Shown here one piece after another: positions 2,059-63,865 of a stretch of 64,000 nucleotides of DNA. The position numbers and the translations under genes are program-made. Positions within the stretch are counted from its first letter, which is position 1. Every line of letters starts with the position of its first letter. Source of the DNA: an uncultured Gammaproteobacteria bacterium (GTDB lineage: Bacteria > Patescibacteriota > Microgenomatia > Levybacterales > GWA1-39-11). The notes beneath the pieces were generated by a model, which worked only from the letters and a program-made list of their open reading frames with translations, made no database searches and had not been told where the DNA came from. The stretch is taken from contig CAYOTA010000002.1 of NCBI GenBank assembly GCA_964406795.1, positions 81,549 through 145,548 on the forward strand, read 5' to 3'.

Positions 2059-2619
2059 TTAAATCGGGGATCCATCCAGGCAAAAAGTGTTTGGTACAGG
2101 AGGAATAGTTACTCCTTCATCAGGTATAGCATTAGCAACTTTTTGCAGCGCAAGAGACAATTCCAATTTTTTAGGAGATACTGGACGTTTGCCACCCTTG
2201 AAGTGTCTATCAAGTAATGCTTGTACCCTGGGGTCTACGTGCAAATTTGGATTTAAGCTGTTTGCATCATGTCTGAGTAATTTCCTAACTCCTTCAAGAT
2301 CTGGCTCATCACCTCGCAAGCTATCCAGAATTCCACCTGTGTTTGTCACACTTTCAACATGTATGTCATATATATATTTTCCTCTACCATTTCTATAGTC
2401 TTCCCCTGAAGAATTTAACATAGCAAGAAATAGTGAATCTTCTTGTTGTTTGAGGAAAACTCTATCAACGGCTACATTTAATGCCTCAACAGGTGTGGGA
2501 CTTCCTTTTGCCATTTCTACAATCTTTTCATTATTAAAAGATTGTGCCTTTTTAACTGCCTGCTCTTTAGAAACTGGCTGGGGATTTCCTGACTCTCTAT
2601 TATCTGGAAGTTGACTCAT
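2059..2619 (-). CDS. hypothetical protein
   Basis: 186-aa ORF with no recognisable motif; position fits operon spacing. Confidence 0.45.
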   Translation of the reverse strand: MSQLPDNRESGNPQPVSKEQAVKKAQSFNNEKIVEMAKGSPTPVEALNVAVDRVFLKQQEDSLFLAMLNSSGEDYRNGRGKYIYDIHVESVTNTGGILDSLRGDEPDLEGVRKLLRHDANSLNPNLHVDPRVQALLDRHFKGGKRPVSPKKLELSLALQKVANAIPDEGVTIPPVPNTFCLDGSPI

Positions 2620-2639: not shown

Positions 2640-4121
2640 TTACAATCCTGCAAAGTAGTCGGTTTTGATACTGGTGGGTTTGATTCCGAGCTTATTCAGA
2701 GTCCCTTTGACCCCATGTACCATTCCACTTGATCCAGAAATATAATATTTCCTACCTTCATAATCAGTTACTTGTGTTTTTATGACATCTTCAGTTAAAT
2801 GCTGACCCTTAGATGAATCCACATATACAGCTTTAACGCCAATTGATCTTGCTTGATCTACAATATCTTTATAGGTAAATTCATCACTACTTCCACAATA
2901 GTGAATAAAGATTATATCTCGCTTTTCTCTACTATCTATTAAATACTTCAGCATACTTCTAAATGGAGTAATCCCTATTCCACCTGCTATAAACACAAGC
3001 TTTTTTGTGGTGTCTTTCGGAAGTATAAAATCTCCTTTGAGCTGCCCTGCATATATCACGTCTCCCGGCTTTAAACTAAATAGTGCATTTTTAAATGTGC
3101 TGGACGGATTATACTTTTTAACCCCTAGCTCAAGTGCCCCTTCTGTGGGAGAAGACGCAATAGTAAAGTAACGTCTTATTCCCCTAGAATCAGCCTTTGA
3201 GTGTGGTAGTGTCCATTCCATATACTGACCTGGTTTAAATTTTACCCACGTAGGTTTATCAAATATAAATGCATCAGTAGTTGGAGACAATTTTTGAATT
3301 TTTTCAAGGGTTAACTTGAGCCTCCATTTGGGGCTCACCGCAAATGCAAAAATATTACCAATTAATAATGCAAACTCCGGTGTTACGTAAAAATTAAACA
3401 CAGGAATCTGATATGTAGTTATAATTCCCACTATTGCTCCGTAAACCATCTGCATTCTCTTAGTAGATGGGGCTGTTATAGGTTCTGTTAGTATAATTGT
3501 TCCCAAGAATAGTAATGGCCAGGAAGTAAAAGCAAACTTGAGTGTCTCTAAAGGCGGTTGATTATACGTATATCCAAAAATAAGCATAACAATAAGTGCT
3601 GGGAGTAAAAATGAAAACAGCATGGTAAATTTACGGATTTTACGTACTACCAAAAAGCCTAAAACTACCATAGGCAGCAACAATGCCTCAGATCCCACCC
3701 ACCAAGATACACCTAAACCCAAAAATCCTACCACAAATGAACCCAGTGCTGCCGGATTAAATATATGTTTCCTATGATACACAATCACATATTTAGAAGC
3801 GATAGTAAGTACGCCTGCCAAAAATACTAAAAGATAGCTTTGTAAAGTATTCGAAGGGGAAAGAATAAAAAACAAAATAAGCGACGTTATAGCGCTTGAC
3901 TCTGTATTTGATGGAATTTTTAAAAATTTGGATAACACGTGATTTGTTGCAAAACAACTTATGAATAACAATACAAATGAAACAGAAAGAACGAGTGGGT
4001 CAAGGGATAAAATTTGCAGCAATGTAAGAATGAAAGACAAAATAGCAAGTACAACCAGCCCATATAGGACTAGTCTGTACATGGTGATAGAATTCAAAAG
4101 ATTATCTATTTTAGAAAACAT
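2640..4121 (-). CDS. membrane oxidoreductase: RnfD/NqrB-like multi-TM domain fused to ferredoxin-NADP-reductase-type FAD/NAD(P)H-binding domain (NqrF-like)
   Basis: N-terminal ~280 aa with ~8 hydrophobic helices ending LTEPITAPSTKRMQMVYGAIVGIITT, resembling the conserved C-terminal motif of RnfD/NqrB; C-terminal RRYFTIASSP (FAD RxY[ST]), GDFIL, LVFIAGGIGITPFRSM (NAD GxGxxP). Confidence 0.7.
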   Translation of the reverse strand: MFSKIDNLLNSITMYRLVLYGLVVLAILSFILTLLQILSLDPLVLSVSFVLLFISCFATNHVLSKFLKIPSNTESSAITSLILFFILSPSNTLQSYLLVFLAGVLTIASKYVIVYHRKHIFNPAALGSFVVGFLGLGVSWWVGSEALLLPMVVLGFLVVRKIRKFTMLFSFLLPALIVMLIFGYTYNQPPLETLKFAFTSWPLLFLGTIILTEPITAPSTKRMQMVYGAIVGIITTYQIPVFNFYVTPEFALLIGNIFAFAVSPKWRLKLTLEKIQKLSPTTDAFIFDKPTWVKFKPGQYMEWTLPHSKADSRGIRRYFTIASSPTEGALELGVKKYNPSSTFKNALFSLKPGDVIYAGQLKGDFILPKDTTKKLVFIAGGIGITPFRSMLKYLIDSREKRDIIFIHYCGSSDEFTYKDIVDQARSIGVKAVYVDSSKGQHLTEDVIKTQVTDYEGRKYYISGSSGMVHGVKGTLNKLGIKPTSIKTDYFAGL

Positions 4122-4133
4122 ACTAGTATTGTA

Positions 4134-5012
4134 TCACTGAATAAATAATTCAGCATTAAATCCCTTACTTTTTTCAAAAGTCATATTGGAGTATAAAATA
4201 AAAAATTCACATGGGTATATTGTTTTTGAAACATCGGATTGATCCAAATATAAAACGGTTGTCATGCCGTCAGCAATAAACGCTGTTTTTGCAGTTACCC
4301 AAACGGCGGAAATGTTAGTAGGAGAGGTGAGGGTTTGCGGATTAATTATATGGTGGTACTTCCCCCATTTACGTCTATTTCCTGCAGATCCGCATATACT
4401 TTCATTTAGTATTTCAGAAATTGCTATCACCTGTGTACTGTCTTGGGGATTTTCAAGACCAATTCGTGCCCCATGTAGTGAATTCGAATGATGAAGCATG
4501 TCTCCGCCAGCATTGATTAAAAATTCTGTGACACCCTCTTCCTGTAAAATAGTGCCAATGATATCAACAAGATATCCTTTTCCCCCAGCCCCAAAATCCA
4601 ATAATACAGGATTTTTTACTGTGAGAATTTGATTTTCATATACGAGTGCTTGATCTAGTAAGAGAGGGGAAACAACTTTTTTTGATTTTAATGTATAAGA
4701 AGCATCATAGCCTAGGGAAACGAGAGTATTTCCTATGAGAGGGGTAAACAGTCCATGAGTTTTGTGATAAAAATTTTTATAGATTTCAAAAAGCAAGGTA
4801 AAATCATCAGGCATTGTGTAGTTGCCTGCTTGTTGTGAAATTTTTGAAACTAGCGAGTCAGACCTAAAGCGTGAGTAATTTTTATCAAACTCCTCAATTC
4901 TATTCTTAATTATCTGAGCCAAAAAGTTTACTTTTGATGTTTCAAAAAATATATCAATTTCCCAGTGTGTTCCAATCGCCTCAAGTGAAAAAGAGCTTAA
5001 TATGTGCGACAT
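4134..5012 (-). CDS. apbE: FAD:protein FMN transferase (ApbE family)
   Basis: ApbE motifs LLDFGAGGKGYLVD and INAGGDM; length 292 aa. Confidence 0.8.
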   Translation of the reverse strand: MSHILSSFSLEAIGTHWEIDIFFETSKVNFLAQIIKNRIEEFDKNYSRFRSDSLVSKISQQAGNYTMPDDFTLLFEIYKNFYHKTHGLFTPLIGNTLVSLGYDASYTLKSKKVVSPLLLDQALVYENQILTVKNPVLLDFGAGGKGYLVDIIGTILQEEGVTEFLINAGGDMLHHSNSLHGARIGLENPQDSTQVIAISEILNESICGSAGNRRKWGKYHHIINPQTLTSPTNISAVWVTAKTAFIADGMTTVLYLDQSDVSKTIYPCEFFILYSNMTFEKSKGFNAELFIQ

Positions 5013-5014
5013 TC

Positions 5015-5503
5015 TTAGCTTTTTGCCTCAATTTTTATTTTTTCAAGCGCGTCTTGAAAACCTTTGGGAGTAAGAGACGAGCCTGAAACTTTTGTTAAAT
5101 TTACTTCATCAATGCGTTTACCTACTACCATTGGCTTATAATTTGCGATAAAGTCTGCTTGTTTTTTTTTCGTTGTTGGTCTGTTTGCTTGTGAAAAAAC
5201 TTCAACCTCGGATATTATTCCTTTTGTTAAAGTAACCGTTACGCCAATTGTCTCGGCTCCTCCAGGAGATATATATTCACCAACCTGTGTATAAATTCCA
5301 TTCTTGTATTCTGCCTGAATTGTTTGTGCTTCGGTGTTAAGCTGATTAGCACTTGGAGTTTGATTAACGATAGGTACAATGTTATTAGATTCAATCGTCT
5401 CAAGCCCTATAACGGAAATAATGATAAATAAAACTATGATAACAGCAATTATTGACGTTTTAGCGATGTTGTTGTATGGTCTTTTTGTGTTTTGTTCAAT
5501 CAT
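5015..5503 (-). CDS. membrane-anchored FMN-binding domain protein (NqrC/RnfG-like, FMN_bind)
   Basis: N-terminal TM anchor (IIAVIIVLFIIISVIGL), C-terminal FMN_bind-like domain with candidate flavinylation motif KVSGSSLT; strong SD GGAGGTGA 7 nt upstream; 2-nt gap to apbE. Confidence 0.65.
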   Translation of the reverse strand: MIEQNTKRPYNNIAKTSIIAVIIVLFIIISVIGLETIESNNIVPIVNQTPSANQLNTEAQTIQAEYKNGIYTQVGEYISPGGAETIGVTVTLTKGIISEVEVFSQANRPTTKKKQADFIANYKPMVVGKRIDEVNLTKVSGSSLTPKGFQDALEKIKIEAKS

Positions 5504-5646
5504 TTATAGATCACCTCCGTTCAAATTCGTCAAATAGACCGCAAAATAATATTTGAATATGTAGAAAGTCTCTACACCGATGCGCATTTACCGGTTAAGA
5601 TATCAGTGTATAAAATCGATGTGACGAATGCAAGAAAGAATTATTT

Positions 5647-6348
5647 TTAATGAACAACAAGTAGATTAAGAGCCGTTGTTACTACATATATAGCAACTAT
5701 TCTCAAAATAAGCATTGCGGTGTCTTTTAGCACAAATCCCTTTCTGCATTCATGGTGAATTTCATAAATTGAATCAGATAGCGCTATGTAAATAAAGAAA
5801 ACGGCAGTAATAGGGGGAAACACTGTTTGAATTATAAATTCACCTAAATCACTAAATACAAACATGAGTGTTGCACCTAGAAAGGGAAGCTTCTGCAGGA
5901 AAAACATTAATAAAAATAATCTTTTTGATTTAATTTTTCCTTAAGCAGTACCTCAAAGTTCCCAATCTCCTCCTACGGCAATTGACGTCACAATTCCTTG
6001 AGGAATATTAACAAGAAATGAAGCAGCAATAACTATTCAATCTATAAAACTATGCATGGTGTCCACGAACACAATAAGTGACACTATGGGTTCTCTTTTT
6101 ATTATCTCTCAATCACTTGAAGGGTGATGCGACCAGTGTAAAAAGCGCTCAAATAAGAAAAAGAAGAGTATTCCACTAGGTACACCTATACCTACTGTTT
6201 CAGAAGTGGGTTCATGTACGGATTCAGGAAGTAAATCAAAAAAAACGGTACTCAAAATCGATCCAGCTGCAAATGAAGAAAATAAATGGGAGATATTGTT
6301 TGATAATTTAGGACGGGTTAAAAGATGCATTCCCCCAAGTAATGACAA
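5647..6348 (-). pseudogene. fragmented ZIP-family metal transporter (zupT-like) remnant
   Basis: Two short ORFs (79 aa FDLLPESVHEPTSETVGIGV...HWSHH; 86 aa ...SDSIYEIHHECRKG...) resemble the N- and C-terminal thirds of ZIP/ZupT transporters; the ~200 bp between them has no intact frame. Confidence 0.4.
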
Positions 6349-6736
6349 AACTCAACCATGGCTGTGAATAAGAGCGATGCAGAAAAATAAAATCATTTAC
6401 AATTTTTACATAATTCAAAAAATTTAACCATGTGACTGGTTTATTTAAACTCGGTGGTGGCTTCTATTAATTTCTCCTGACTTTCAAATTCATGGTCTAA
6501 GGGAGTGTCAGTTACTCGCTTACAATTTATACAAATAATATGAAGATGACTCGGTCTGTTTTAAGTTATTTCGTACCGTTTTTTTACCGTTCCCAAATTC
6601 AACTTCTAAAATAACTGTGTGTTCTACTTGTAAGTATTAACTTTTGATCCATTTGTCTATAATAACGCAACTTACTTGCATTAGTATATGCAACATAGTT
6701 GCGTTTGTCAATAGAGTAATTTGTTATAATACTTGT

Positions 6737-10864: not shown

Positions 10865-12313
10865 TTGATGGACGCATTACCCCCTACATCCCCCAAAAAT
10901 ATCCCAACCGTATTTATAATCTTTGGTGCAACGGGAGATTTAATGGCTAAAAAAATTACCCCAGCACTTTTCCAACTATATATAAACAAAAAATTGCCTT
11001 CCATGTTTAAGATTATTGGCTTTTCCAGGCGTAGTTTAACACAAGATGATTTTAAAGTTCATGTACGCCAAATTTTAAAAGCAAACCGCAAAAGTGAAGA
11101 ATCACAAATAGAGTCATTTTTAAATTACTTCATGTATCACAAGGGTGAGTTTGATACGCTTGACTCATATTCTACCCTGGCTGAATATTTAGGACAGGTT
11201 GACGGAGAATGGAAAGCTTGCTCTAATAAACTTTTTTATTTGGCAGTTCCCCCTAAAAATTATAAAACGATTTTTCAACATTTAAAAAGTTCAGATCTTA
11301 CACTCCCTTGTGGTCCAGATGAAGGTTGGACTCGAGTTATTGTTGAAAAACCATTTGGAAAAAACGCTGAAACAGCACAGGAACTAGACACACTTTTGGG
11401 AAAGTTATTTAAAGAAGAACAAATTTACAGAATTGATCACTATCTCGGAAAAGATATGCTGCAGAACATTTTAACGTTTAGATTTAATAATGATTTATTT
11501 GAACGTGAATGGGACGGCCGTCATATAGAAAAAATAGAAATAAAATTTTTGGAAAGTATGGGTACTGAAGGGCGTGAAGTTTTTTATGAAGGAGTTGGGG
11601 CACTGCGGGACGTAGGCCAAAACCATATGCTCCAGATGCTCGCTTTTATTACCATGGACCAACCTGATTCTTTTACAGCAACAGACGTAAGACAGCAAAG
11701 AATGAAGGCGCTGCAAAAACTAAAACCCCTGTCAGAGGACGAAGTACTTTCAAAAACTTTTAGAGGACAGTATGTAGGATACACGGCGGGAGAAGGAGTT
11801 ACCACTTCATCTAAAACAGAAACTTACTTTAAAGTGATTGCAGAACTCACAACCGAGCGCTGGAAAGGTGTCCCCATCATTTTAGAAGCGGGAAAAAAGC
11901 TTGAGAAACGTAAAGAAGTAATTGTAACCTTTAGGCATAAGTCTTCCTGTCTGTGCACAGGTGATACTCATTACAAAAATAGACTTCTTTTTACCCTAGA
12001 ACCTAAAGAGGGAATAACTATAGAATTTTGGTCAAAAAAACCAGGACTCACTTATGCTATGGAAAAGCAAAAGTTATCATTTTTATTCAGGGATCAGCGT
12101 AAAAAAGCCCAGTATATAGAGGAGTATGAAAAACTTCTGCTTGATTGTATATTAGGAAATCAGATATCATTTATCTCAACTGAGGAAGTACAAGCAATGT
12201 GGAAATTTATTGATCCCATAGCTACTTCATGGGAAAAAAATAAAGTGAAACTTGTAAAGTACAAACCTAAGTTAAAACGAATACTTCTCGAAAGCATGAA
12301 AATTGAAGCGTAA
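10865..12313 (+). CDS. zwf: glucose-6-phosphate 1-dehydrogenase
   Basis: NADP-binding FGATGDLMAKKI; active-site signature RIDHYLGKDMLQNILTFRFNN; 482 aa. Confidence 0.9.
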   Translation: MMDALPPTSPKNIPTVFIIFGATGDLMAKKITPALFQLYINKKLPSMFKIIGFSRRSLTQDDFKVHVRQILKANRKSEESQIESFLNYFMYHKGEFDTLDSYSTLAEYLGQVDGEWKACSNKLFYLAVPPKNYKTIFQHLKSSDLTLPCGPDEGWTRVIVEKPFGKNAETAQELDTLLGKLFKEEQIYRIDHYLGKDMLQNILTFRFNNDLFEREWDGRHIEKIEIKFLESMGTEGREVFYEGVGALRDVGQNHMLQMLAFITMDQPDSFTATDVRQQRMKALQKLKPLSEDEVLSKTFRGQYVGYTAGEGVTTSSKTETYFKVIAELTTERWKGVPIILEAGKKLEKRKEVIVTFRHKSSCLCTGDTHYKNRLLFTLEPKEGITIEFWSKKPGLTYAMEKQKLSFLFRDQRKKAQYIEEYEKLLLDCILGNQISFISTEEVQAMWKFIDPIATSWEKNKVKLVKYKPKLKRILLESMKIEA

Positions 12314-12318
12314 AAAAT

Positions 12319-13245
12319 ATGAAAAAGCAAATTGGCCTCATTGGACTTGGCAAGATGGGTGCAAATGTTGCCCGCAGACTGACCACTATGGGTTGGGAAG
12401 TTATTGCTTTTAATAGGACCGCAGAAGTAACACAGACACTCGCAAAAGAAGGAATCATAGGCGCATACAGTCTAGAAGAATTGACCCAAAAACTGGAAAT
12501 GCCACGTCCTATTATAACGTTGCTTCCCACAGGAAATCCTACTGACGAAATGCTTGAAAAACTGCTTCCGCTATTATCACCAAATGACATCATTATAGAA
12601 ATGGCTAATTCTTTTTACAAAGATACACAAAAACGGGCGAAATCTGTAGAGTCACACAAAATAAAGTTCATCGATGTAGGAATATCAGGTGGGCCTGGTG
12701 GAGCCCTAACCGGTGCTTGTCTTATGGTTGGTGGAAATACTGAATTATTCACCTATCTTAAACCTTTATTTACTGACATGGCCCGTTTTGATTCCTCAGG
12801 GCAAGCTATTGCACATTTTCCAGGTGTGGGTGCGGGGCATTTTGTCAAAATGGTTCACAACGGAATTGAATACGGAATTATGCAGTCAATTGCCGAAGGA
12901 TTTGCTATCATGAAAAACTCTGAATTTAACTTAAACTTACAACAGGTAACGCAAATTTACAACAACGGAAGTGTTGTAGAATCCAGACTTATTGGCTGGC
13001 TTCAGGAATCGTTTGAAAAATATGGACAAGACTTAGAGACACTTTCAGGTGCAGTCGGTTTTAACGGAGAAGGAGAATGGACGGCAAAAGTAGGTACTGA
13101 AATGAATATTCCAACTCCAGTCATCACTGACTCAGTAAAGTTTAGAAAAGAGTCTCAAGAAAATCCCAGCTATACAGGTAAAGTATTAACCGCTATGAGA
13201 AACGCATTTGGCGGACACAGTATTGAAAAAGGTAAAATGACTTAA
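12319..13245 (+). CDS. gnd: 6-phosphogluconate dehydrogenase (decarboxylating), short NAD(P)-binding form (YqeC-like)
   Basis: Rossmann N-terminus IGLIGLGKMGANVARRL, GGPGGALTGACLMVGG, C-terminal GEGEWTAKVGTEMNIPTPVIT; 5 nt after zwf. Confidence 0.8.
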   Translation: MKKQIGLIGLGKMGANVARRLTTMGWEVIAFNRTAEVTQTLAKEGIIGAYSLEELTQKLEMPRPIITLLPTGNPTDEMLEKLLPLLSPNDIIIEMANSFYKDTQKRAKSVESHKIKFIDVGISGGPGGALTGACLMVGGNTELFTYLKPLFTDMARFDSSGQAIAHFPGVGAGHFVKMVHNGIEYGIMQSIAEGFAIMKNSEFNLNLQQVTQIYNNGSVVESRLIGWLQESFEKYGQDLETLSGAVGFNGEGEWTAKVGTEMNIPTPVITDSVKFRKESQENPSYTGKVLTAMRNAFGGHSIEKGKMT

Positions 13246-15712: not shown

Positions 15713-16987
15713 CTACTTAACTTTGAATTTAATGAAAGTGCAGTTATTTTCTGTTATCTCCATTGGGTTAAATGTCTGGAGCTGCAGAGATTTTTCAGAT
15801 GCAATCCTGGAAGCTCTGAACGGCAGTGAATAGATTCTATAAGCCAGATCTTTTACAAAACTTGTTACATCACCTAGAAATGTGCTTTGTGATGTGGATT
15901 CTCCCAAAACAGCATATGCACCTCCCATAGCTGTTGCTTTTGGCTTACATCTATTTACCGCTTGGATTCTATATTCCACACCTTTTTTAACATTACTTGG
16001 CATGTTGTAATTCCATTTACCTTCGTAATTAACCAGTGTTGGGGAAGCATTAGTAACTGTCACCGGAAGCGGCGCAGTTTCAGTCAATCTTGTATTTCCT
16101 TCAAACAATCTATACACAAAACCTGTTAATACTGCCTTTGATGTATTAGTTCCCGTCACTTTTCCTTTCGCGGTTACTGTAAACGGTCTACCAGACGCAA
16201 GTGCCGTTACGCTGATACTATCGCACTCACACATAGCGTTATTAAAGTCTGGTGTAGGAGTAGGTGGACGAGGTGTAACTGATGCGGTAGGACGCGGTGT
16301 ATTAGATGGCGCCGGTGTGTTAGTAGGTCTAGGCGTACTAGTTGGACCAGGTGTGTTTGTAGGAGCCGGTGTACGGGTAGGTATTGGTGTACCGGTTGGA
16401 CCGGGCGTGAATGGAGGCTGAGTCGGCACTATGCATTGCCCACAATCCCCTGGGCAACTGGAACATGTTTCATCTGGCTCACATGTATTGTTGGGACATG
16501 TTTGAGGTGGTTGGGTAGGTGGTGGCGGACTTGTAGGCACATTTGGAGGTGTTGTGGGAGCTTTAGTTGGCGGCCAGGTTGGTGGTGCTGTAGGAGGTTT
16601 AGTAGCAGGTGGTGGACAAAAATTTGGACCCTGGCATGCCACAGAGTTTGTTGGAAACTCTCCTGTTTTTACACAGTTGCAATCATTATCATATTGCCAA
16701 TCAGATGTGACACCACACGAAACACACTGATACTTGCAGTAGCTACCAGGTGTATTTCCATATCCTACATCAGGACATGTTTTTGGGCCACACGATCCGC
16801 ATTCTGTGCAAATCGGAGTATTATTTGTACAAATTGCAAGGTTTGGAGGACCCCAATTAGTACAACATGCTTTATCAGGATTACCGGGATACTTATCGGT
16901 ACATACTGAGTCTACAGCATAGGCTTTATCTCCCGAGATAAACAACAGTAAGGTAAAAACAAACACAAATAATAATTTTTTAAACAT
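15713..16987 (-). CDS. secreted cysteine-rich protein with Pro/Thr-rich linker
   Basis: Signal peptide MFKKLLFVFVFTLLLFISGDKAYA, ~20 Cys in first 180 aa, PT(x)PPT low-complexity linker, ~170-aa C-terminal domain. Confidence 0.6.
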   Translation of the reverse strand: MFKKLLFVFVFTLLLFISGDKAYAVDSVCTDKYPGNPDKACCTNWGPPNLAICTNNTPICTECGSCGPKTCPDVGYGNTPGSYCKYQCVSCGVTSDWQYDNDCNCVKTGEFPTNSVACQGPNFCPPPATKPPTAPPTWPPTKAPTTPPNVPTSPPPPTQPPQTCPNNTCEPDETCSSCPGDCGQCIVPTQPPFTPGPTGTPIPTRTPAPTNTPGPTSTPRPTNTPAPSNTPRPTASVTPRPPTPTPDFNNAMCECDSISVTALASGRPFTVTAKGKVTGTNTSKAVLTGFVYRLFEGNTRLTETAPLPVTVTNASPTLVNYEGKWNYNMPSNVKKGVEYRIQAVNRCKPKATAMGGAYAVLGESTSQSTFLGDVTSFVKDLAYRIYSLPFRASRIASEKSLQLQTFNPMEITENNCTFIKFKVK

Positions 16988-16998
16988 ACTAATCCTAG

Positions 16999-18234
16999 TT
17001 ATTTTCTTGGATAAAATAAATACTCTAAGTAAGCAAAATATGCAGTATCAGTCATGTCTACTATCTTTTCAATGCCCTCTGGGACACTTTTTGTTTTTTT
17101 TGCTGCGGTTACACCGTTCTCACCCCACACAAGTTTGTTTTCTGCACTGTCATAATAATTTTGCTCCAAGTAACGCATGACTCGTTCACCCTTTTCAAAC
17201 GCGATCGGATCGTTTGATATTTTATATATCAAATAATACGTTTCAGCGCAAGGCTCAACGCTTACCGAAAAAGGTACATTTAAATACAAACTTTGTATTT
17301 CAGAATCAGTGTCAATGAGCCGTGCCTCATCTAAATAGTTGGGATCTTTGGTTGCCATTGCCATTTCGGCGGCGGCCAGTGTATACCAGCAAGCTTGGCT
17401 TTTTTCATTTGCTTGTGTTAAGTCATCTTCCCCCATTGTGTCGGTCGCATTGAGTGCTTGCTTTACTTCATTAAATGCTTTTGTAGCAGCAGTTAAATAC
17501 TGTTGGTTTTTTGTAATTTGATAAAAAAGTGCTAATTCACGTGCCCGAATACTTTGGATCATAACACTTCCCTTAAAATCAGTTGCAACTAAATTTGCAC
17601 CAATACTATTTATAAAGCTTAAAATTTCTGGTGACTGCGTTCCCATGTAAATAATAGAGGGCTGTGCTAAAACCCATAAGCAGTCATTTTTGCGGGGCTC
17701 ACAATATGACATGAGACTTTCTACATCCTTATTCATAAGCTCAAAATATTTGTCATCTTTTGTTACATCGTAGGCTGCAAAATATCCTAATGCTGACCAG
17801 CTATTATTGATTGGAAGCACGTTATCTGACCCATTTGGACAATTAGTTACTTTATCTCCTCCACATACTTCATTAAAGTGAGCAATATAATTATTGTATC
17901 CTTCAGGTGTTTTTTGAGTCGTTATGTAGTCCGCCACTGCTTTAATTATTCCAAGTCTTTCTTTTCTTAAAGAATCTTGTGCATCCTCTATAGTTTTAAA
18001 TTTTGGAGAAGAGGGTCTACCTGGAAGCTCTTTAACTCCTGATTGAGGTTTATTCATGGTAAGGATGACTGTTATGAGGGCGCCAATCAAGAGCATTGCA
18101 ACTACAATCACAATATGGACTTTTTTCCTTTTTAAAAAGTCTTTAAAGCCACCTGATGCAGGTGGGGTTACCGGCTCAGAAACCATAGGTTGAGCGGGTG
18201 TCACTGGTTGTGTGTTTTGTGTTACAGGATCCAT
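16999..18234 (-). CDS. membrane-anchored extracytoplasmic protein (unknown function)
   Basis: N-terminal Pro-rich segment, single TM (IVIVVAMLLIGALITVILTM), ~330-aa helical-repeat domain; 12 nt after the upstream gene. Confidence 0.55.
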   Translation of the reverse strand: MDPVTQNTQPVTPAQPMVSEPVTPPASGGFKDFLKRKKVHIVIVVAMLLIGALITVILTMNKPQSGVKELPGRPSSPKFKTIEDAQDSLRKERLGIIKAVADYITTQKTPEGYNNYIAHFNEVCGGDKVTNCPNGSDNVLPINNSWSALGYFAAYDVTKDDKYFELMNKDVESLMSYCEPRKNDCLWVLAQPSIIYMGTQSPEILSFINSIGANLVATDFKGSVMIQSIRARELALFYQITKNQQYLTAATKAFNEVKQALNATDTMGEDDLTQANEKSQACWYTLAAAEMAMATKDPNYLDEARLIDTDSEIQSLYLNVPFSVSVEPCAETYYLIYKISNDPIAFEKGERVMRYLEQNYYDSAENKLVWGENGVTAAKKTKSVPEGIEKIVDMTDTAYFAYLEYLFYPRK

Positions 18235-18238
18235 GATA

Positions 18239-18922
18239 TTAAAAAATAATAAAACCGGCTCCTACGGCTATTACTGCTAAAACTCCTATAATTATTCCGG
18301 CTGTTTCCAGTATACCTCCCGTAGGTGGAATTACTTCATTCACTATTGGTGTGGGAATGAATGTAGTCGGAACTGGTGTTATAACTGTTATAGTAGGTGT
18401 TGCAACTGGTACAGTTGGCACAACTGGTGTTGTAGGAACTGGTGTTGCCTCAATCAGTGCATCATTCTCACAATACTGCTCAGCGGATGCTGTAACGCTG
18501 GTGCCCCCACACGTATTTACTGTCGAAATCGTACATCTGTATGTGGTTCTTTGAACAATATCAAAAGTAACCTTAGTGGTACTAGACGGAACTGTTTGCT
18601 GCAGTACTTGCTGGCCAGATTCTACCTGAATTACTGTTACATTGTAATTAGTTGCATCCAGTGAGTCACCCCATGCACAATTTGCCTGGTTAAAATTACA
18701 CTGTGTTCCTTCACAATTAGGATAGTTTACCAGTACCTCTGATGGAGGCTGTGGTGCCGGACAAGCTTCATCTACTCCGTCATCAGTTACTTGCTGCGCG
18801 CCGGATCTATTATCTTGAGACTGACGAGTTAGGTATAAGGTCACACCTACACTTCCGATTAATACAAAAACAATAATGCCTAATAAAATAATTTTTTTGT
18901 TCATAGCGATGCCATAAGGCAT
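18239..18922 (-). CDS. secreted Cys-containing PT-rich protein with C-terminal TM anchor
   Basis: Signal/anchor at N-terminus, 8 Cys in the central domain, PTTPVVPTVPVATPT linker, C-terminal hydrophobic anchor ILETAGIIIGVLAVIAVGAGFIIF. Confidence 0.55.
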   Translation of the reverse strand: MPYGIAMNKKIILLGIIVFVLIGSVGVTLYLTRQSQDNRSGAQQVTDDGVDEACPAPQPPSEVLVNYPNCEGTQCNFNQANCAWGDSLDATNYNVTVIQVESGQQVLQQTVPSSTTKVTFDIVQRTTYRCTISTVNTCGGTSVTASAEQYCENDALIEATPVPTTPVVPTVPVATPTITVITPVPTTFIPTPIVNEVIPPTGGILETAGIIIGVLAVIAVGAGFIIF

Positions 18923-22582: not shown

Positions 22583-25500
22583 ATGAAATTATTTAAAAAG
22601 GTATTAACTGCGTTTTGCTTAAGCATCCTATGGATTTGTCTCTTTTCTATTTTCCCCACAAAATCATTTGCTCTTCCCGGAAGCGTTCTTGAAATGGGTT
22701 TTTCCGAAGGCAACGGAACAACGGTTTCCGACTCTTCAGGTAGCAATAATAATGGGACTATTTCCGGAGCCGTTTGGGAATCAAATGGAAAATTTGGATC
22801 CGCTTTGTCGTTTGATGGGTTAAATGACCTGGTCACCATAGCTGACGCAAACAGCTTAGACTTAACAAACAATATAACTCTGGAAGCATGGGTAAAACCC
22901 ACTACAACCTCAAGCAATTACAGAACAATTATCATGAAGGAAAGACCCTCAAACGCTACATACACTCTTTACAGCAACAGTAATAATAACCGTCCTATGG
23001 GTGAGCATTCAAAGACCAGCGGAGCTGTTGTAGATATAAAAGGAACCACTCAACTTCCTGCAAATACTTGGTCTCACATTGCAGTGACTTACAATGGTGC
23101 ACAATTTAAATTTTTTCTAAATGGTGTGCAAAAAGCATCAAAAAATACAACTGGAGCTATGTTTGTTTCCAATGGGGCGCTCAGGATTGGGGGAAACTCT
23201 ATATGGTCAGATGAGTATTTCAGTGGACTGATTGACGAAGTAAGAATATATAACCGCGCTCTTACTGCAGCCGAGATTACAACAGACATGAATACTCCGA
23301 TTACACAAGATACTACAAATCCTACCATATCCATTACCTCCCCTACACAGGGCGCCACAATTTCAGGAACTCAGATCATTACAGCAAACGCACAAGACAA
23401 TATTTCTGTTGCAGGTGTTCAGTTTAAAGTAGACGGACAAAATGTAGGAACAGAAGACACCTCAGCTCCCTATGCGTTTTCTTGGAATACAACTTCTGCT
23501 ACCAATGCTGACCACATAATCACAGCTGTTGCAAGAGATTCATCACAAAATACTACTACTTCATCTCCCATAACTATTACAGTTTCCAATCCCCCTACTT
23601 TAACTATTAGTTCTCCTTCCGAAAACCAAAATATAGTGGGAAATAACATAACAATTACTTATACAAAATCAGGAGATTTAACTTATGCAAATCATGCTCA
23701 TTTTGTGCTTGATGGTGGAGCAACCAAGATGGACTTAGATTTTGATGGAACATATACTATTTCAAATGTTGCGCCTGGAAATCACACGCTTGTTGGAATG
23801 ATAGCCAGATCAGATCACAGTGAGATAGAATTGTCAGAAGATACAGTCAGCTTTACAACCACTGTTCCTGACACTACAAATCCAGTTGTTGATATAATTT
23901 CTCCAGAAGAAGGATCAATAGTATCAGGAACAACAACCCTAACAGCAGTTGCAACAGACAACATAGCTATATCAGGAGTACAATTTAAAGTTAACAATCA
24001 AAATGTAGGAGCACAAGATACTACATTTCCTTATCAAGTATCATGGAATTCCACAACGGTTTCCAATGGAACATATACCTTAACTGCAATAGCAACAGAT
24101 ACTTCTCAAAACGCTACATCTTCAGCGCAAATTTCTATAACAGTCCAAAATGCAGACCCAAGAGCCCAAATTGGTCAGTGGAGCGGCATCATGAATTGGC
24201 CGCTGGTAGCAGTACATTCTACTTTTTTAAATACTGGTAAAATTCTCGTGTGGGATGCATGGGAATATAATACAACAACCGCAAAATTGTGGGACTACCA
24301 AACCAACACATTTTCGCAAGTTCCTAATAGTTCCCAACTTTTTTGTGCGGCACATACAACACTTGCTGATGGTCGTGTACTTGTAACGGGGGGACACAAT
24401 GGGGGAGAAATTGGTATTAAAGACACAAACATTTTTTCTCCTGAAACGGGAAACTGGAATCGTCCACCTGACATGCAGTATGCACGATGGTACCCTTCAA
24501 ATGTAACGTTAGGAGATGGTCGAGTTGTAGTATTAAGTGGACAAATAACCGGAGGGACATTTGCCGATATACCAGAACTATACAACCCAATTACTAATAC
24601 ATGGTCCACTCTGAATGTGAATACTTCCAGTATGCGTGATAGTGAATACCCGCTTACCTTCCTACTTCCGAATGGAAAAATATATACAATTGCGGCAACT
24701 CCTGGAAACTCATATACCTTAGATGTTGCAACTCCACAGTGGACTAATGTGGGTACAATTCCTTCAAAGCTTGGTTCTGCTGCAATGTATCGTCCTGGTA
24801 AGATCCTTTACACAGGAGGAGGAGACATTAAAGATTCAGGACAGGCTTCAAGAAATCAGGCATCAGTAATTGATATGACAGCGGCAACTCCTACATGGAG
24901 TACTGTTGCATCAATGGCGTACCCTAGATACCAGCATAATCTCACTATTCTTGCAGATGGAACTGTCATGGCAATCGGCGGCGCCAGTATTGTTTCACAA
25001 ACTGCCACAAGTGGCACTTTGCCAACAGAAATTTGGGATCCAACTACACAATTATGGTCGACAACTGCTTCAATTGCCCAATCAAGAAACTATCACTCAA
25101 CCGCAATGCTCCTTCCAGATGGCAGAGTCTTATCAGCCGGAGGAGGAAGACTTGGGGGAGCGCCAGACAGATTTACAGCACAAATTTATTCACCCCCTTA
25201 TCTTTTCAAAGGCACAAGGCCAGTTATCAATACAGCACCCACCAACACTGGCTATGGTGAGCAGATGAGTCTTTTAACATCTGATACCACCAATATTTCT
25301 AAAGTGGCATTTGTACCCCTGGCATCCAACACGCACACACTTGACATGAATCAACGATACGTAGAACTCAACTTTACAAAAACAACAAATCAAATAACTG
25401 TTGATAGTCCCACTGATTTTAACATTGCTCCACCTGGTTACTATATGGTTTTTATTATCAATAATCTCGGAGTGCCGTCTGAAGCAAAAATAGTAAAACT

Positions 25501-26488
25501 CAACACATTAAATGACACTACATTTCCCACTGCTTCTATTACCTCTCCAACCCAAAACGCAACCGTTGTTGGTAGTATCACTATCACTGCTCAGGCAGCT
25601 GACAACATTGCAGTAGCACAAACACAATTCACGCTCGATGGTAACAATATAGGCTCTCCCGACACATCAGTTCCTTATGAATTTACATGGGATACAACTA
25701 CCTCATCAAATGGCATTCACTTGCTTTCTGTCAAAGCAACAGACACCTTTGGGAACACAACCACTTCAGACGACGTCTCTGTTACTGTTGATAATCCAGT
25801 AGACACCACAGCACCAATCATAACGAATGTCTTGTCAAGCAATATAAGCGGGACAACAGCAACAATTAGCTGGACAACGAATGAGAATGCAGATACACAG
25901 GTTGAATACGGTACTACAACTGCCTATGGATCAAATACCACCCTCAATCCTGTTCTTTCCACAACTCATAGTCAAAGTTTATCCGGACTAACCAGCAACA
26001 CACAGTATCAATACAGAGTAAAAAGTAAAGACGCCAATGGCAATCTTACAACCTCTGATAACATGACATTTACAACAACAGGCAACCTCGCCACCATTAA
26101 TTTTAATGATCACCCCCAAACAGATGTATCGTTGAACGGGATATTTCCAACAGGTCTTATTAACTGGGGTACAAATCAGTGGTTTATTTCAGGTCCTTGG
26201 GGCCAATTTACTACAAAGAGTATTAGCTTTAACAGCGCTTCCCAAACAACTGCCACATTTAATTTTGTGACCCCAAAAATCTTGTCACAGCTTGATATGT
26301 ATAATGGAGGAGCAAATGGCACTACCACAATTGCTTGTACTGGAAACACAACAAAGTCTGTATCCATAAATGCTTCCCAAATCTTAACAAATATAAGCAC
26401 CGGGTTTACAACACCTTGCACTACTGTTACTTTCACCTCATCTAACGGATGGAACACAAACTATGATAATTTTGTAGTAACTGACTAA
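22583..26488 (+). CDS. giant secreted multidomain protein: LamG lectin-like + Ig-like (Big) repeats + galactose-oxidase-like kelch propeller with DUF1929 + Ig-like + fibronectin type III
   Basis: Signal peptide; LamG_3 motif LIDEVRIYNRALTAAEI; repeated ~90-aa Ig-like units (ISITSPTQGATISG..., DIISPEEGSIVSG..., SITSPTQNATVVG...); copper-radical-oxidase motifs LFCAAHTTLADGRVLVTGG, ARWYPSNVTLGDGRVVV, SRNYHSTAMLLPDGRVLSAGGG; FN3 (ATISWTTNENADTQVEYG). Confidence 0.8.
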   Translation: MKLFKKVLTAFCLSILWICLFSIFPTKSFALPGSVLEMGFSEGNGTTVSDSSGSNNNGTISGAVWESNGKFGSALSFDGLNDLVTIADANSLDLTNNITLEAWVKPTTTSSNYRTIIMKERPSNATYTLYSNSNNNRPMGEHSKTSGAVVDIKGTTQLPANTWSHIAVTYNGAQFKFFLNGVQKASKNTTGAMFVSNGALRIGGNSIWSDEYFSGLIDEVRIYNRALTAAEITTDMNTPITQDTTNPTISITSPTQGATISGTQIITANAQDNISVAGVQFKVDGQNVGTEDTSAPYAFSWNTTSATNADHIITAVARDSSQNTTTSSPITITVSNPPTLTISSPSENQNIVGNNITITYTKSGDLTYANHAHFVLDGGATKMDLDFDGTYTISNVAPGNHTLVGMIARSDHSEIELSEDTVSFTTTVPDTTNPVVDIISPEEGSIVSGTTTLTAVATDNIAISGVQFKVNNQNVGAQDTTFPYQVSWNSTTVSNGTYTLTAIATDTSQNATSSAQISITVQNADPRAQIGQWSGIMNWPLVAVHSTFLNTGKILVWDAWEYNTTTAKLWDYQTNTFSQVPNSSQLFCAAHTTLADGRVLVTGGHNGGEIGIKDTNIFSPETGNWNRPPDMQYARWYPSNVTLGDGRVVVLSGQITGGTFADIPELYNPITNTWSTLNVNTSSMRDSEYPLTFLLPNGKIYTIAATPGNSYTLDVATPQWTNVGTIPSKLGSAAMYRPGKILYTGGGDIKDSGQASRNQASVIDMTAATPTWSTVASMAYPRYQHNLTILADGTVMAIGGASIVSQTATSGTLPTEIWDPTTQLWSTTASIAQSRNYHSTAMLLPDGRVLSAGGGRLGGAPDRFTAQIYSPPYLFKGTRPVINTAPTNTGYGEQMSLLTSDTTNISKVAFVPLASNTHTLDMNQRYVELNFTKTTNQITVDSPTDFNIAPPGYYMVFIINNLGVPSEAKIVKLNTLNDTTFPTASITSPTQNATVVGSITITAQAADNIAVAQTQFTLDGNNIGSPDTSVPYEFTWDTTTSSNGIHLLSVKATDTFGNTTTSDDVSVTVDNPVDTTAPIITNVLSSNISGTTATISWTTNENADTQVEYGTTTAYGSNTTLNPVLSTTHSQSLSGLTSNTQYQYRVKSKDANGNLTTSDNMTFTTTGNLATINFNDHPQTDVSLNGIFPTGLINWGTNQWFISGPWGQFTTKSISFNSASQTTATFNFVTPKILSQLDMYNGGANGTTTIACTGNTTKSVSINASQILTNISTGFTTPCTTVTFTSSNGWNTNYDNFVVTD

Positions 26489-39862: not shown

Positions 39863-40660
39863 AAGGTTTGACCTTGAGTATGCTTAACGAAGGTCAAACC
39901 TTCACGACGAACAACTGTGAATAAACCTTACTACAATGCCGTCAAAAAATATAATAAAAACTTATTATAAAGGCGCCTACTTTCATGTCTACAATCGTGG
40001 TGTTGAAAAGCGTTCAATCTTCATAGATGAACAAGACTGTCAGGTGTTTTTAAGATATATCAAACTATACTTATCTCCTTTGGAATTTGTAAACAAAATG
40101 GGAGAGTCAGAACCAAAAATCCGAAGATTTTTTAAATTAAATCTGAAAAATGATGTAGAGCTTTTGTGTTTTGCACTTATGCCTAATCATTTTCATATGC
40201 TGTTAAAGAATAAAAGCGAAAGGGGTATTCCAATACTAATGCAACGCGTTATGACTGCTTACACAATGTATTTTAACAAAAAATATAACAGAATTGGTGC
40301 CTTATTCCAAAATGCATACAAAGCATCCCCTGTCTTACATGACTCATATCTGCTTCATCTCACCAGATACATTCACAATAATTCATCACGAATTCAACCA
40401 AAGCAAATTAATTTCATGAACTATTCTTCATATCCTTATTATCTAGGAACACTTGCATCAGAATGGCTAAATACAACTTTCATATTAGATTACTTCAAAA
40501 ATACAATCAAAGCTACAAATACGATCGAAGCATATAAAAGCTTTGTTGAAATGGACATCACAGACTCTATAAGTGTGCTTAATTTAAATAACTTAATACT
40601 AGAAAATGACCTATGTATTTAAGGTTTGACCTTCAATGAAGCAGAATAAGGTCAAACCTT
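39863..40660. mobile_element. IS200/IS605-like or REP-associated Y1 transposase (RAYT) unit: hairpin - tnpA - hairpin
   Basis: HuH transposase ORF bounded by two hairpins with identical 13-bp arms AAGGTTTGACCTT/AAGGTCAAACCTT (39863-39902 and 40621-40660), each with a different 14-nt loop. Confidence 0.6.
39936..40622 (+). CDS. IS200-like / REP-associated tyrosine (Y1, HuH) transposase
   Basis: HuH motif LCFALMPNHFHMLL; later Tyr-containing helix (LHLTRYIHNN); Transposase_17-like fold; 228 aa, longer than classical 140-aa TnpA. Confidence 0.65.
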   Translation: MPSKNIIKTYYKGAYFHVYNRGVEKRSIFIDEQDCQVFLRYIKLYLSPLEFVNKMGESEPKIRRFFKLNLKNDVELLCFALMPNHFHMLLKNKSERGIPILMQRVMTAYTMYFNKKYNRIGALFQNAYKASPVLHDSYLLHLTRYIHNNSSRIQPKQINFMNYSSYPYYLGTLASEWLNTTFILDYFKNTIKATNTIEAYKSFVEMDITDSISVLNLNNLILENDLCI

Positions 40661-56379: not shown

Positions 56380-57126
56380 CTATCTTGCACCCGCATTCTC
56401 CAGAATTTCGACTATCTTTGTATACCCACGCTGCTTTGCATGGCTAATTGGCGTTATGCCATCCTTATCCGCACTATTAACATCTGCTCCTGCCTCAACC
56501 AGAAGCCGTACTATTTCCGTATGATCAGGACCTCCTTCGCCTAAAATGATCGCTTCAAGAAGAGCTGTCCAGCCAAGATTATTCACATGGTTTACATCGA
56601 CGTCAGTTCTGGTAAGGAGTTCCTTGACAATCTCAACATGTCCTCGATCTGCAGCAGGGATAAGTGCCGTTCCGCCATACCTATTGAGGAGCTTGGTATC
56701 AGCGTTTGCATCAATGGTAAGTTTGAGAATCTCCAAAAGTCCTTCCGCTCCAGCATACAGAAATGGATTATCCGCCATAGTATCTTGAATGTTAATATCT
56801 GCCCCCTCATTGATGAGAAGTCTGACCACATCGACTTTATTTGCGTGAGTAGCCGCCATGACAGGAGTACCCCCGCGAGCATCGCGTGAATTAATATCTT
56901 CTCCACTGCTCAAAATTCTTTGGATAGTTTTAATATCGCCAATCTCGGCAGCTTGGACAAGCTCTTCAGATTGATACATAGTTGGACGTGAACCGGTTAA
57001 ATTTTGCAAGCGGGTGATATTTTTTTTAGGTATAAAGTTAGAGAAATAATTTGGGAAGACAATATATAGTACTGCCAAAACAATAACTCCACTACTGATA
57101 ATCATTAGGGCATTTTTATTAATCAT
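56380..57126 (-). CDS. ankyrin-repeat protein with N-terminal TM anchor
   Basis: At least 5 ANK repeats (e.g. GGTPVMAATHANKVDVVRLLINEGADINIQD; GWTALLEAIILGEGG...EIVRLLVEAGADVNSAD); N-terminal hydrophobic helix. Confidence 0.8.
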   Translation of the reverse strand: MINKNALMIISSGVIVLAVLYIVFPNYFSNFIPKKNITRLQNLTGSRPTMYQSEELVQAAEIGDIKTIQRILSSGEDINSRDARGGTPVMAATHANKVDVVRLLINEGADINIQDTMADNPFLYAGAEGLLEILKLTIDANADTKLLNRYGGTALIPAADRGHVEIVKELLTRTDVDVNHVNNLGWTALLEAIILGEGGPDHTEIVRLLVEAGADVNSADKDGITPISHAKQRGYTKIVEILENAGAR

Positions 57127-63770: not shown

Positions 63771-63793
63771 AGTGGTTATAGCGAAGAAGATAG

Positions 63794-63865
63794 TGATCCG
63801 ACCGGGGCTCGAACCCGGAACCAAAAGCTTAAAAGGCTTTTGCTCTACCATTGAGCTATCGGACC
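63794..63865 (-). tRNA. tRNA-Lys (anticodon TTT)
   Basis: Acceptor GGTCCGA/TCGGATC (one G-U), D-arm GCTC-AATGGTA-GAGC, anticodon loop CTTTTAA, T-loop TTCGAGC, discriminator A; 72 nt. Confidence 0.8.

Follow-up and report, generated by a model that had tools for sequence, protein, structure and literature searches.

The closest described relative of the locus analysed here is the NQR/RNF-like system, defined by Méheust et al. (2021, eLife; PMC8238504) as a fusion of PF03116 and PF00175 within an ApbE/FMN_bind gene cluster, with hosts mainly among the Actinobacteria and the candidate phyla radiation (CPR). Huang et al. (2024, mSystems; PMC11334425) modelled the complex, noting the loss of the Thr that is flavinylated in NqrB/RnfD, and their multimer model docks the FMN_bind subunit on the extracytosolic face. 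Both descriptions are purely computational (PMC8238504, PMC11334425), and our literature search found no experimental study of any member of the system. The locus that we describe lies in a 64,000-nucleotide stretch of contig CAYOTA010000002.1 (the window) and is a typical member of this published flavinylation-associated electron-transfer system. All four features that define the system in the 2021 study are found here, and the flavinylated Thr is missing from the membrane subunit, as in the 2024 models. The first-pass annotation suggested that the architecture may be undescribed; this is wrong, as the same fusion and cluster were reported in PMC8238504 and modelled in PMC11334425. The electron route that it proposed starts at NAD(P)H in the cytoplasm, passes through FAD and ends at an FMN protein outside the cytoplasm; this agrees with the published model.

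The three genes form a real and intact operon on the minus strand, in the order FMN_bind, ApbE, fusion (Table 1). As first annotated, they are closely spaced, with gaps of 2 nt between FMN_bind and ApbE and 12 nt between ApbE and the fusion gene, and the same order on one strand is kept in 63 of the 80 related loci that we fetched. Coupling is tight across loci (median 4-nt overlap and 2-nt gap), and the cassette occurs in Patescibacteria, Chloroflexota, Alphaproteobacteria, Actinomycetota and Spirochaetota. The membrane domain alone, used as query, recovered 1,365 representative protein clusters, and the architecture is common to hundreds of protein clusters. The closest named relatives appear to be Patescibacteria/Saccharimonadales-type genomes. 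No further Pfam family of the full Nqr/Rnf subunit set, including the NqrD/E or RnfA/E pair, was found in the 47 ORFs of the window that were scanned, which bears out the earlier remark that no other Nqr/Rnf genes are nearby, and the 80 related loci likewise hold only the three-gene cassette.

Table 1. Features of the cassette and its upstream region (positions within the window).
Feature	Position	Strand	Basis
Gene 3, residues 268-493 and stop: ferredoxin-reductase-type FAD and NAD(P)H domain	2640..3320	-	
Gene 3, residues 1-265: RnfD/NqrB-fold membrane domain	3327..4121	-	
Outward-facing loop, residues 134-144 (GLGVSWWVGSE), invariant W140-W141	3690..3722	-	Profile alignment to RnfD, loop charges
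Gene 2: 292-aa ApbE-family FAD:protein FMN transferase, signal peptide absent	4134..5012	-	Pfam and alignment
Gene 1: 162-aa NqrC/RnfG-like FMN_bind protein	5015..5503	-	
Codons S140-G141-S142-S143, predicted flavinylation motif	5075..5086	-	Homolog conservation
Shine-Dalgarno GGAGGTGA	5511..5518	-	7 nt 5' of FMN_bind start codon; read off sequence
Conserved non-coding block (~50 nt), ZIP stop to FMN_bind gene	5594..5643	-	Alignment of window with relatives L081 and L083
ZIP-family metal permease pseudogene	5647..6396	-	tblastn with intact ZIP of L081/L083, 55-59% identity
Fur-family regulator gene remnant	6396..6652	-	tblastn with Fur of L081/L083
Promoter/operator-like element upstream of Fur remnant	6667..6711	-	Conserved in window, L081, L083/L084

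The conserved non-coding block ahead of the FMN_bind gene may be an internal promoter or operator of the cassette; it matches no Rfam family. Promoter and terminator scans returned sites no commoner than in shuffled sequence, and the Rfam scan yielded only tRNAs and therefore no FMN riboswitch. The 186-aa ORF at 2059-2619, 20 nt downstream, was rejected as a fourth component, having no family match and no homolog in the 80 loci; its place in relatives is taken by an unrelated gene on the opposite strand. NADPH-generating G6PD and 6PGD lie 5-8 kb from the cassette. We considered an alternative genetic code, since the TGA that ends ApbE shares its reading frame with the fusion gene and two TGAs of the ZIP pseudogene align to Gly. 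This was rejected: coding coverage under code 11 is 83%, and hardly anything is gained by treating TGA as a sense codon. TGA terminates 8 of the 54 long ORFs, the ZIP fragment also contains a TAA and a deletion, and the in-frame arrangement of the ApbE stop and fusion gene is kept only among the closest relatives.

The domain assignments of the first-pass annotation hold throughout the cassette. In the 493-aa fusion protein, the cytoplasmic ferredoxin-reductase-type (FNR) domain carries the FAD motif RRYFTIAS and the NAD(P)H motif GGIGITPF, scores 35.2 bits for PF00175 and 29.2 bits for PF00970, and has NqrF as its top PDB sequence matches (5.8e-16). The 2Fe-2S ferredoxin domain found in NqrF was not matched in the general Pfam scan, nor does the protein have the di-haem ferric-reductase transmembrane domain (PF01794). 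The membrane domain, whose proposed similarity to RnfD/NqrB survived testing, has 10 predicted transmembrane segments, N-in/C-in, and the alternating positive-inside loops place the FNR domain inside and the loop with the invariant tryptophans (the WW loop) outside. The profile alignment skips RnfD residues ~133-206 (about 70 residues missing), and the short WW loop, from which [ST]GA[ST] is absent, fills the place of the loop bearing the flavinylated Thr. The "membrane FMN" of the first pass is thus unsupported as a covalent flavin, and any flavin of this domain would be non-covalent or lent by the partner protein. An SGSS in the FNR domain (YISGSSGMV) was dismissed as a second flavinylation site; it is not conserved and corresponds to the ordinary FNR "SGPN/CGP" motif.

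In the FMN_bind protein, residues 13-33 form an N-terminal transmembrane anchor, residues 36-61 a disordered linker and residues 66-162 a globular domain with the FMN_bind fold (PF04205). The tests did not refute the earlier claims of this fold and of a flavinylatable Ser. The SGSS motif is invariant in 25 homologs and lies 19 residues from the C-terminus, the same place as the canonical D-x-x-S-G-A-T in the wider family, and S143 is the predicted FMN acceptor. Relative to D-x-x-[ST]-G-A-[ST], the motif here (T-K-V-S-G-S-S) has Thr for Asp at position 1 and Ser for Ala at position 6, with the Gly and acceptor Ser kept. Published substitutions in the motif are still flavinylated, changes of the Asp having minor effect and Ala to Val leaving ~50% flavinylation. 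The acceptor residue co-varies with the type of ApbE: the acceptor is Ser in 18/18 loci with a long ApbE and Thr in 37/42 with a short one. This pairing in our clade of a longer (~290 aa) ApbE type with the variant acceptor motif xGSS, not SGAT, is newly noted here. By hydropathy and the positive-inside rule, the FMN_bind domain is predicted to be extracytoplasmic, as first annotated: the anchor has K/R on its N side only, and the linker that follows is long, disordered and free of K/R. Across loci the N-termini are classic Sec signals or anchors with positive n-regions, with lipoboxes in Actinomycetota.

The ApbE gene (Pfam PF02424, 4.8e-40) keeps its catalytic residues: HHIINP, with the general-base His, and ADGMTT, the metal site, align to HVIDP and ADGWDT/ADALST of solved ApbEs. 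It has no signal peptide or lipoprotein signal; the domain begins at residue 8-14, and only 5 codons separate the ATG from an in-frame stop upstream. No hydrophobic segment was found (maximum KD19 1.12), and a C-terminal or internal anchor was rejected, the sole mildly hydrophobic stretch being the buried ADG helix. ApbE is leaderless in 58 of 66 homologous cassettes, the remaining 8 having hydrophilic or spurious extensions, and the window encodes no second ApbE or FMN_bind gene with a secretion signal. A leaderless ApbE in essentially all loci, beside a substrate predicted to carry a Sec signal or lipobox, is an unexpected and newly noted mismatch, on which neither published description of the system comments (PMC8238504, PMC11334425). 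This complicates the inside/outside scheme and leaves one step of maturation unexplained. We tentatively suggest, as a possibility that we ourselves consider rather unlikely, that ApbE puts FMN on the C-terminal motif of the unfolded or not-yet-translocated FMN_bind protein in the cytoplasm, before or during export. Tat export of a pre-flavinylated, folded FMN_bind protein was rejected, as an RR motif is present in only 3 of 69 N-termini, the rest being Sec-type, some with a lipobox. If pre-export flavinylation were true, the covalent flavin would ride with the chain through the translocon, an undescribed maturation route for extracytoplasmic flavoproteins and one that would make FAD export unnecessary, which would be attractive for minimal-genome bacteria.

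Upstream of the operon lie the remains of two further genes. The ZIP pseudogene is interrupted by five in-frame stops, and its HEIPQEIGDF motif carries a deletion of 8 residues. The Fur remnant has 9 codons and then a stop; its N-terminal half is mostly gone, and 2 stops interrupt the still recognisable 70 residues at its C-terminus. The element ahead of it, containing TTGACA and then the palindromes GCAAC-TAT-GTTGC and GCAA-GTAAG-TTGC, has a putative promoter/operator role. In close relatives an intact Fur gene, ZIP gene and cassette follow one another on one strand, and the regulator of an intact relative matches Pfam FUR at 6.8e-27. The relatives' regulator scores equally as Fur (1.1e-25) or PerR (2.7e-25), and the best match of their permease is the zinc transporter ZupT. 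The arrangement of Fur-family regulator, ZIP and cassette is the ancestral context, newly noted here, of which the regulator and permease have decayed in the window with the cassette left intact. Since both are pseudogenes, the cassette either functions independently of them today or is being lost in its turn. In 3 loci the gene directly downstream, on the strand of the cassette, is NRAMP, and in 3 a VIT1 gene is found in the vicinity; VIT1 was reported in six clusters of the NQR/RNF-like system (PMC8238504). The Fur/ZIP pair is confined to near relatives, and in most of the 80 loci the surroundings lack a metal transporter.

From these features we consider it reasonably probable that the locus encodes an NQR/RNF-like complex of two subunits with a dedicated maturation enzyme, in which electrons flow outward from NAD(P)H to FMN and for which a role with metals is the most plausible. 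NAD(P)H would reduce FAD in the cytoplasmic domain of the fusion protein, an activity assigned by homology, and electrons would cross the membrane through the fused 10-TM domain. Having lost the covalent-FMN site, this domain presumably uses a non-covalent flavin and/or the partner's flavin docked at the outward WW loop, following Huang et al. (2024). Electrons would end on FMN held covalently on Ser143 of the anchored FMN_bind protein, a predicted modification that the co-encoded ApbE would carry out, site and enzyme both being recognised by homology. Unlike the semicircular path of Nqr/Rnf, which pumps ions, the flow would run outward in one direction only. The most likely function, judged from sequence, is NAD(P)H-driven export of electrons to a flavin outside the cytoplasm, perhaps in order to reduce metals; the ancestral Fur/ZIP context suggests a part in metal homeostasis, the most plausible being to reduce Fe(III) so that Fe(II) can be taken up.

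The same complex with the same outward flow could serve extracytoplasmic oxidative-stress defence or redox repair rather than iron assimilation, for example by reducing O2, peroxide-derived oxidants, or oxidised methionine or thiols at the cell surface. The fit of the relatives' regulator to PerR as well as to Fur would suit such a role, as would the MsrA-like and MsrB-like genes seen each in the 6-kb flanks of 3 loci (identified by eye from N-terminal sequences), the two-component system convergently downstream in ~8 loci, which suggests control by envelope signals, and the survival of the cassette here despite the decay of the metal permease. We nevertheless judge this role unlikely: no conserved dedicated acceptor enzyme stands beside the cassette, Msr linkage is rare, and the metal transporters ZIP, NRAMP and VIT1 recur at least as often.

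Two other readings alter the complex itself. If the FMN_bind protein were not exported, the leaderless ApbE would simply flavinylate it in the cytoplasm, and the complex would be a membrane-bound NAD(P)H oxidoreductase with its flavins on the cytoplasmic or membrane side. ApbE lacks a signal or anchor in ~60 cassettes, and cytoplasmic ApbEs with cytoplasmic substrates are documented, as for Klebsiella fumarate reductase. Against this, the FMN_bind N-termini and actinobacterial lipoboxes described above are export signals, the K/R-free linker follows the anchor, the loop that stands in for the flavin site of NqrB/RnfD is on the outer side, and the published multimer model places the subunit on the extracytosolic face; we find retention in the cytoplasm quite improbable. 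A minimal energy-conserving pump, coupling NAD(P)H oxidation to Na+/H+ translocation as in Nqr/Rnf, would be hard to reconcile with the absence of NqrD/E (RnfA/E), of a membrane Fe-S centre and of an electron return path, and with the lack of a conserved acceptor-side partner encoded beside the cassette, and we give it very little credence.

CPR bacteria largely lack respiratory chains, and the cassette is among the very few membrane redox modules that they have; the identity of its acceptor would be informative about how CPR cells deal with iron or oxidants at the cell surface. Plant FRO2, a ferric reductase of the NOX/FRE/FRO group, works with the ZIP transporter IRT1 and is cited as an analogy only. 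If the pre-export flavinylation suggested above were true, this widespread cassette would also be a self-contained, Fur-family-controlled NAD(P)H-to-metal reductase beside ZIP or NRAMP importers, and a flavin-based bacterial counterpart of FRO2-IRT1. The intact Fur, ZIP and cassette order in near relatives and its decay here provide a concrete hypothesis, that metals are reduced in order to be taken up, and allow genomes to be compared in a natural way, and the family-wide mismatch between a cytoplasmic transferase and an exported substrate raises a specific and cheaply testable question about covalent flavoprotein maturation outside the cell.

Compared with Na+-NQR (NqrA-F) and Rnf (RnfA-E,G), the cassette lacks NqrA/D/E and RnfA/B/C/E, its B/D-like domain is without the covalent FMN site, and its B-like and F-like modules form one chain, with a flow presumed one-way outward in contrast to a semicircular path coupled to ion pumping. 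Its membrane domain is unrelated to that of NOX/FRE/FRO ferric reductases, having an RnfD/NqrB fold and flavins rather than a six-helix di-haem domain (PF01794), and its terminal redox centre resides on a separate flavinylated subunit. With the flavin-based extracellular electron transfer (EET) of Listeria (Ndh2, EetA/B, PplA, FmnB) it would share an ApbE-family enzyme that flavinylates an extracytoplasmic, membrane-tethered FMN_bind protein, and the handing of electrons from that protein to external acceptors. In Listeria a quinone pool supplies the electrons via Ndh2, FmnB is an ApbE homologue active on the extracytosolic side, and an ECF transporter serves flavin acquisition and extracytosolic trafficking (PMC9973259); here, by contrast, donor domain and membrane module form a single fused protein, ApbE has no leader and the neighbourhood shows no evident flavin exporter. 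Cytoplasmic ApbE systems such as that of Klebsiella pneumoniae fumarate reductase likewise have an ApbE with no signal peptide and with its catalytic residues kept, but their flavinylated substrate is a soluble cytoplasmic enzyme (PMC12052999), whereas the only candidate substrate here carries a Sec signal or anchor. With the NQR/RNF-like system the locus shares both subunits (FMN_bind, and a membrane domain fused to an NqrF-like NAD-binding domain), the ApbE neighbour, the lost flavinylated Thr, a host range including CPR and the absence of other Nqr/Rnf subunits. Our clade differs from it in details only, namely the Ser acceptor in x-K-V-S-G-S-S with its ~290 aa ApbE, and in having as ancestral neighbours a Fur-family regulator and a ZIP permease, which in this genome are pseudogenes.

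The three-gene locus is an ordinary member of the NQR/RNF-like system, which is published, widespread and known from computation. The first-pass annotation had regarded the fusion of an RnfD/NqrB-like membrane domain with an NqrF-like FAD/NAD(P)H (FNR) domain as a possibly undescribed architecture, but Méheust et al. 2021 (PMC8238504) had already defined this system as a flavinylation-associated cluster in which one protein combines an NqrB/RnfD-like (PF03116) membrane domain with a C-terminal NqrF-like NAD-binding (PF00175) domain. Huang et al. 2024 (PMC10979944 / PMC11334425) modelled the complex of Ktedonobacter racemifer, in which the empty flavin pocket receives the NqrC-like flavin, and reported that the system lacks a conserved NqrB/RnfD flavinylation site. 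The mechanism suggested in the annotation, a flavin wire from cytoplasmic NAD(P)H to an extracytoplasmic FMN protein, coincides with the hypothesis of these papers, and its functional reading of the cassette is reasonable. Our literature search found no experimental study of the NQR/RNF-like system.

The observation of a three-gene operon is sound. The annotation had placed the three minus-strand ORFs exactly; they are separated by 2 nt and then 12 nt, with GGAGGTGA 7 nt upstream of the FMN_bind start codon. Its domain assignments passed the Pfam cutoffs for the fusion (NQR2_RnfD_RnfE, 34.6 bits against a cutoff of 27.7, the match being confined to the C-terminal part of the profile, together with FAD_binding_6 and NAD_binding_1) and for ApbE (4.8e-40), while the 162-aa protein scored slightly under the cutoff for FMN_bind (21.4 bits against 22). 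The same synteny occurs in other genomes: with profiles made from the window's own proteins, FMN_bind, ApbE and fusion genes followed one another on one strand in 63 of 80 related loci, with median junctions of a 2-nt gap and a 4-nt overlap. Databases contain thousands of relatives of the fusion protein, labelled "ferredoxin-NADP reductase / RnfD subunit" in several sources; every one of the top 120 is full length, at 45-70% identity. The membrane domain alone retrieved 1,365 clusters at 50% identity (340 with E ≤ 1e-30), mostly of 480-515 aa. A fusion relative is encoded at 471 of the first 600 pattern matches in species-representative genomes, and the hosts of these 471 range over Patescibacteria, Ktedonobacteria and other Chloroflexota, Mesorhizobium/Kaistia, Microbacteriaceae and Spirochaetota.

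Features of the cassette and its surroundings
Feature	Position	Strand	Remarks
Fusion gene	2640-4121	-	493-aa ORF
ApbE gene	4134-5012	-	292-aa ORF
FMN_bind gene	5015-5503	-	162-aa ORF
Non-coding block, ~50 nt	5594-5643	-	between ZIP stop and FMN_bind gene; conserved with L081, L083
ZIP permease pseudogene	5647-6396	-	five in-frame stops; 8-residue deletion in the metal-site motif HEIPQEIGDF
Fur-family regulator pseudogene	6396-6652	-	first nine codons and stop-interrupted C-terminal 70 residues left
Promoter/operator-like element	6667-6711	-	TTGACA, then GCAAC-TAT-GTTGC and GCAA-GTAAG-TTGC; upstream of Fur start
Glucose-6-phosphate dehydrogenase (G6PD), 6-phosphogluconate dehydrogenase (6PGD)	10865-12313, 12319-13245	+	5-8 kb from cassette

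The genetic code was checked because the TGA stop of ApbE is in frame with the fusion gene and in-frame TGAs also occur in the upstream pseudogene. TGA as a sense codon was rejected: the standard code gives 83% coding coverage with near-zero gain from recoding, and TGA terminates 8 of 54 long ORFs in the window. Only 20 nt separate the fusion gene from a downstream 186-aa ORF (2059-2619, minus strand), for which neither Pfam nor NCBIfam gave a match and the 80 loci gave no homolog; in relatives its place is taken by an unrelated 223-aa gene on the opposite strand.

By sequence, the best solved relatives of the C-terminal domain of the fusion are NqrF proteins (5.8e-16), and its membrane domain resembles RnfD weakly (E 0.009). 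The alignment pairs FNPAA (121-125) with RnfD 121-125 and then jumps, pairing fusion residues 133-257 with RnfD 206-327, so that about 70 RnfD residues, including the flavinylated-Thr loop, are unmatched in the fusion; in their place stands a short loop bearing an invariant Trp-Trp pair (the WW loop, residues 134-144). Lys+Arg counts alternate cleanly in successive loops (1.0, 0.06, 1.3, 0.1, 2.0, 0.03, 4.1, 0.6, 1.9, 0.2, 3.7), which fits a predicted topology of 10 TM segments with both termini cytoplasmic, the WW loop outside and the FNR domain inside.

The acceptor region of the FMN_bind protein is well conserved, VSGSSLTPxGF being invariant in 25/25 homologs. The wider family has the canonical D-[IV]-[IV]-S-G-A-T at the equivalent position, 17-21 residues before the C-terminus, and sequences that depart from our motif pattern nonetheless retain Ser as acceptor (for example VAGSS or VGGSS). 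The published canonical flavinylation motif is D-x-x-[ST]-G-A-[ST], with tolerated substitutions of Asp (minor effect) and of Ala to Val (~50% flavinylation). Cassette ApbEs in the 80 loci are of two types, and type co-varies with the partner motif: the ~247-aa type (start MKxTRxLMGMPITV) pairs with SGAT, having a Thr acceptor in 37/42 loci and Ala at the third position in 42/42, whereas the ~290-aa type (start xFEAIGTxW), to which the window's enzyme belongs, pairs with xGSS, having a Ser acceptor in 18/18 and Ser at the third position in 16/18. This co-variation speaks for a true pairing of enzyme and substrate, although common ancestry might leave the same pattern.

The ApbE of the window starts at the first strand of its domain, with only 5 codons between its ATG and the upstream in-frame stop. 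No hydrophobic segment was found in it, and the catalytic His (HHIINP) and metal site (ADGMTT) are retained. The same holds family-wide, and is one of two points worth carrying forward: 58 of 66 cassette ApbEs begin no more than a few residues from the start of the domain, and the extensions of the other 8 are hydrophilic or spurious, so that across about 60 related loci no lineage shows a signal peptide or anchor on the enzyme. In contrast, the partner FMN_bind proteins always have classic Sec-type signals or anchors (lipoboxes in Actinomycetota), with a twin-arginine motif in 3/69 N-termini, and the prediction therefore puts the enzyme inside the cell and its substrate outside. As a rule, ApbEs are secreted lipoproteins, and known cytoplasmic ApbEs have cytoplasmic substrates; Méheust 2021 and Huang 2024 make no mention of a leaderless cassette ApbE. 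The unfolded FMN_bind preprotein may possibly be flavinylated before export, the motif being known to function as a 7-residue linear tag, or a second ApbE might be encoded elsewhere in the genome, none being found within the 64-kb window. Unconventional export of ApbE would also resolve the mismatch, as would an error in the topology prediction.

The second point is an association with Fur and ZIP genes, and its decay in this genome. In the closest relatives (fusion identity 70% and 61%), a Fur-family regulator and an intact ZIP permease precede the cassette on the same strand, and YibE/F divergently upstream and a RarA/MgsA gene downstream are common to these relatives and the window. The Fur and ZIP genes are intact in L081, L083 and L084 and are pseudogenes in the window, where Fur has lost its N-terminal half. 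TTGACA and two GCAAC-N3-GTTGC-type palindromes are conserved in the window, L081 and L083/L084, and are a candidate Fur-family operator kept despite decay of the regulator. The non-coding block preceding the FMN_bind gene matches no Rfam family and could serve as a promoter or operator within the cluster.

Elsewhere in the window, a 1,301-aa protein (22583-26488, plus strand) carries a Laminin_G_3 domain, three Ig-like Big_7 domains, a Kelch propeller similar to that of glyoxal/galactose oxidases and a GO-like E-set domain. It appears to be a large, copper-radical-oxidase-like protein of the cell surface, something unusual in a small genome. Genes for an IS200-like Y1 transposase (39936-40622, plus strand), an ankyrin-repeat protein (56380-57126, minus) and a Bro-N domain protein (62943-63851, minus) probably represent mobile DNA or horizontal gains. 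No Pfam match at E ≤ 1e-5 was obtained for three ORFs in a row, of 424, 411 and 227 aa (15713-18922, minus).

Judging from gene neighbourhoods, we favour a role of the cassette in metal handling, which would most simply be Fe(III) reduction feeding Fe(II) import. Besides Fur and ZIP, NRAMP is the next same-strand gene after the fusion in 3/80 loci, and VIT1 is nearby in 3/80. A histidine kinase and OmpR-type response regulator lie convergently just downstream in ~8/80; loci with two-component, NRAMP or VIT1 neighbours include L054 and L059. Growth of Bifidobacterium breve under iron limitation has been linked to an apbE mutant and to a membrane protein that binds FMN, an indirect precedent only, since the system is a different one. 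Oxidative stress or redox repair remains a serious rival, because the metal-gene linkage is clade-specific, the regulator of the relatives gives equal scores for Fur and PerR, and the best match of their upstream permease is ZupT. G6PD and 6PGD, the NADPH-generating branch of the pentose-phosphate pathway, are also found near the cassette in L083. For the favoured role in metal handling, a functional analogue may be seen in plants, where NAD(P)H ferric reductases work together with ZIP transporters.
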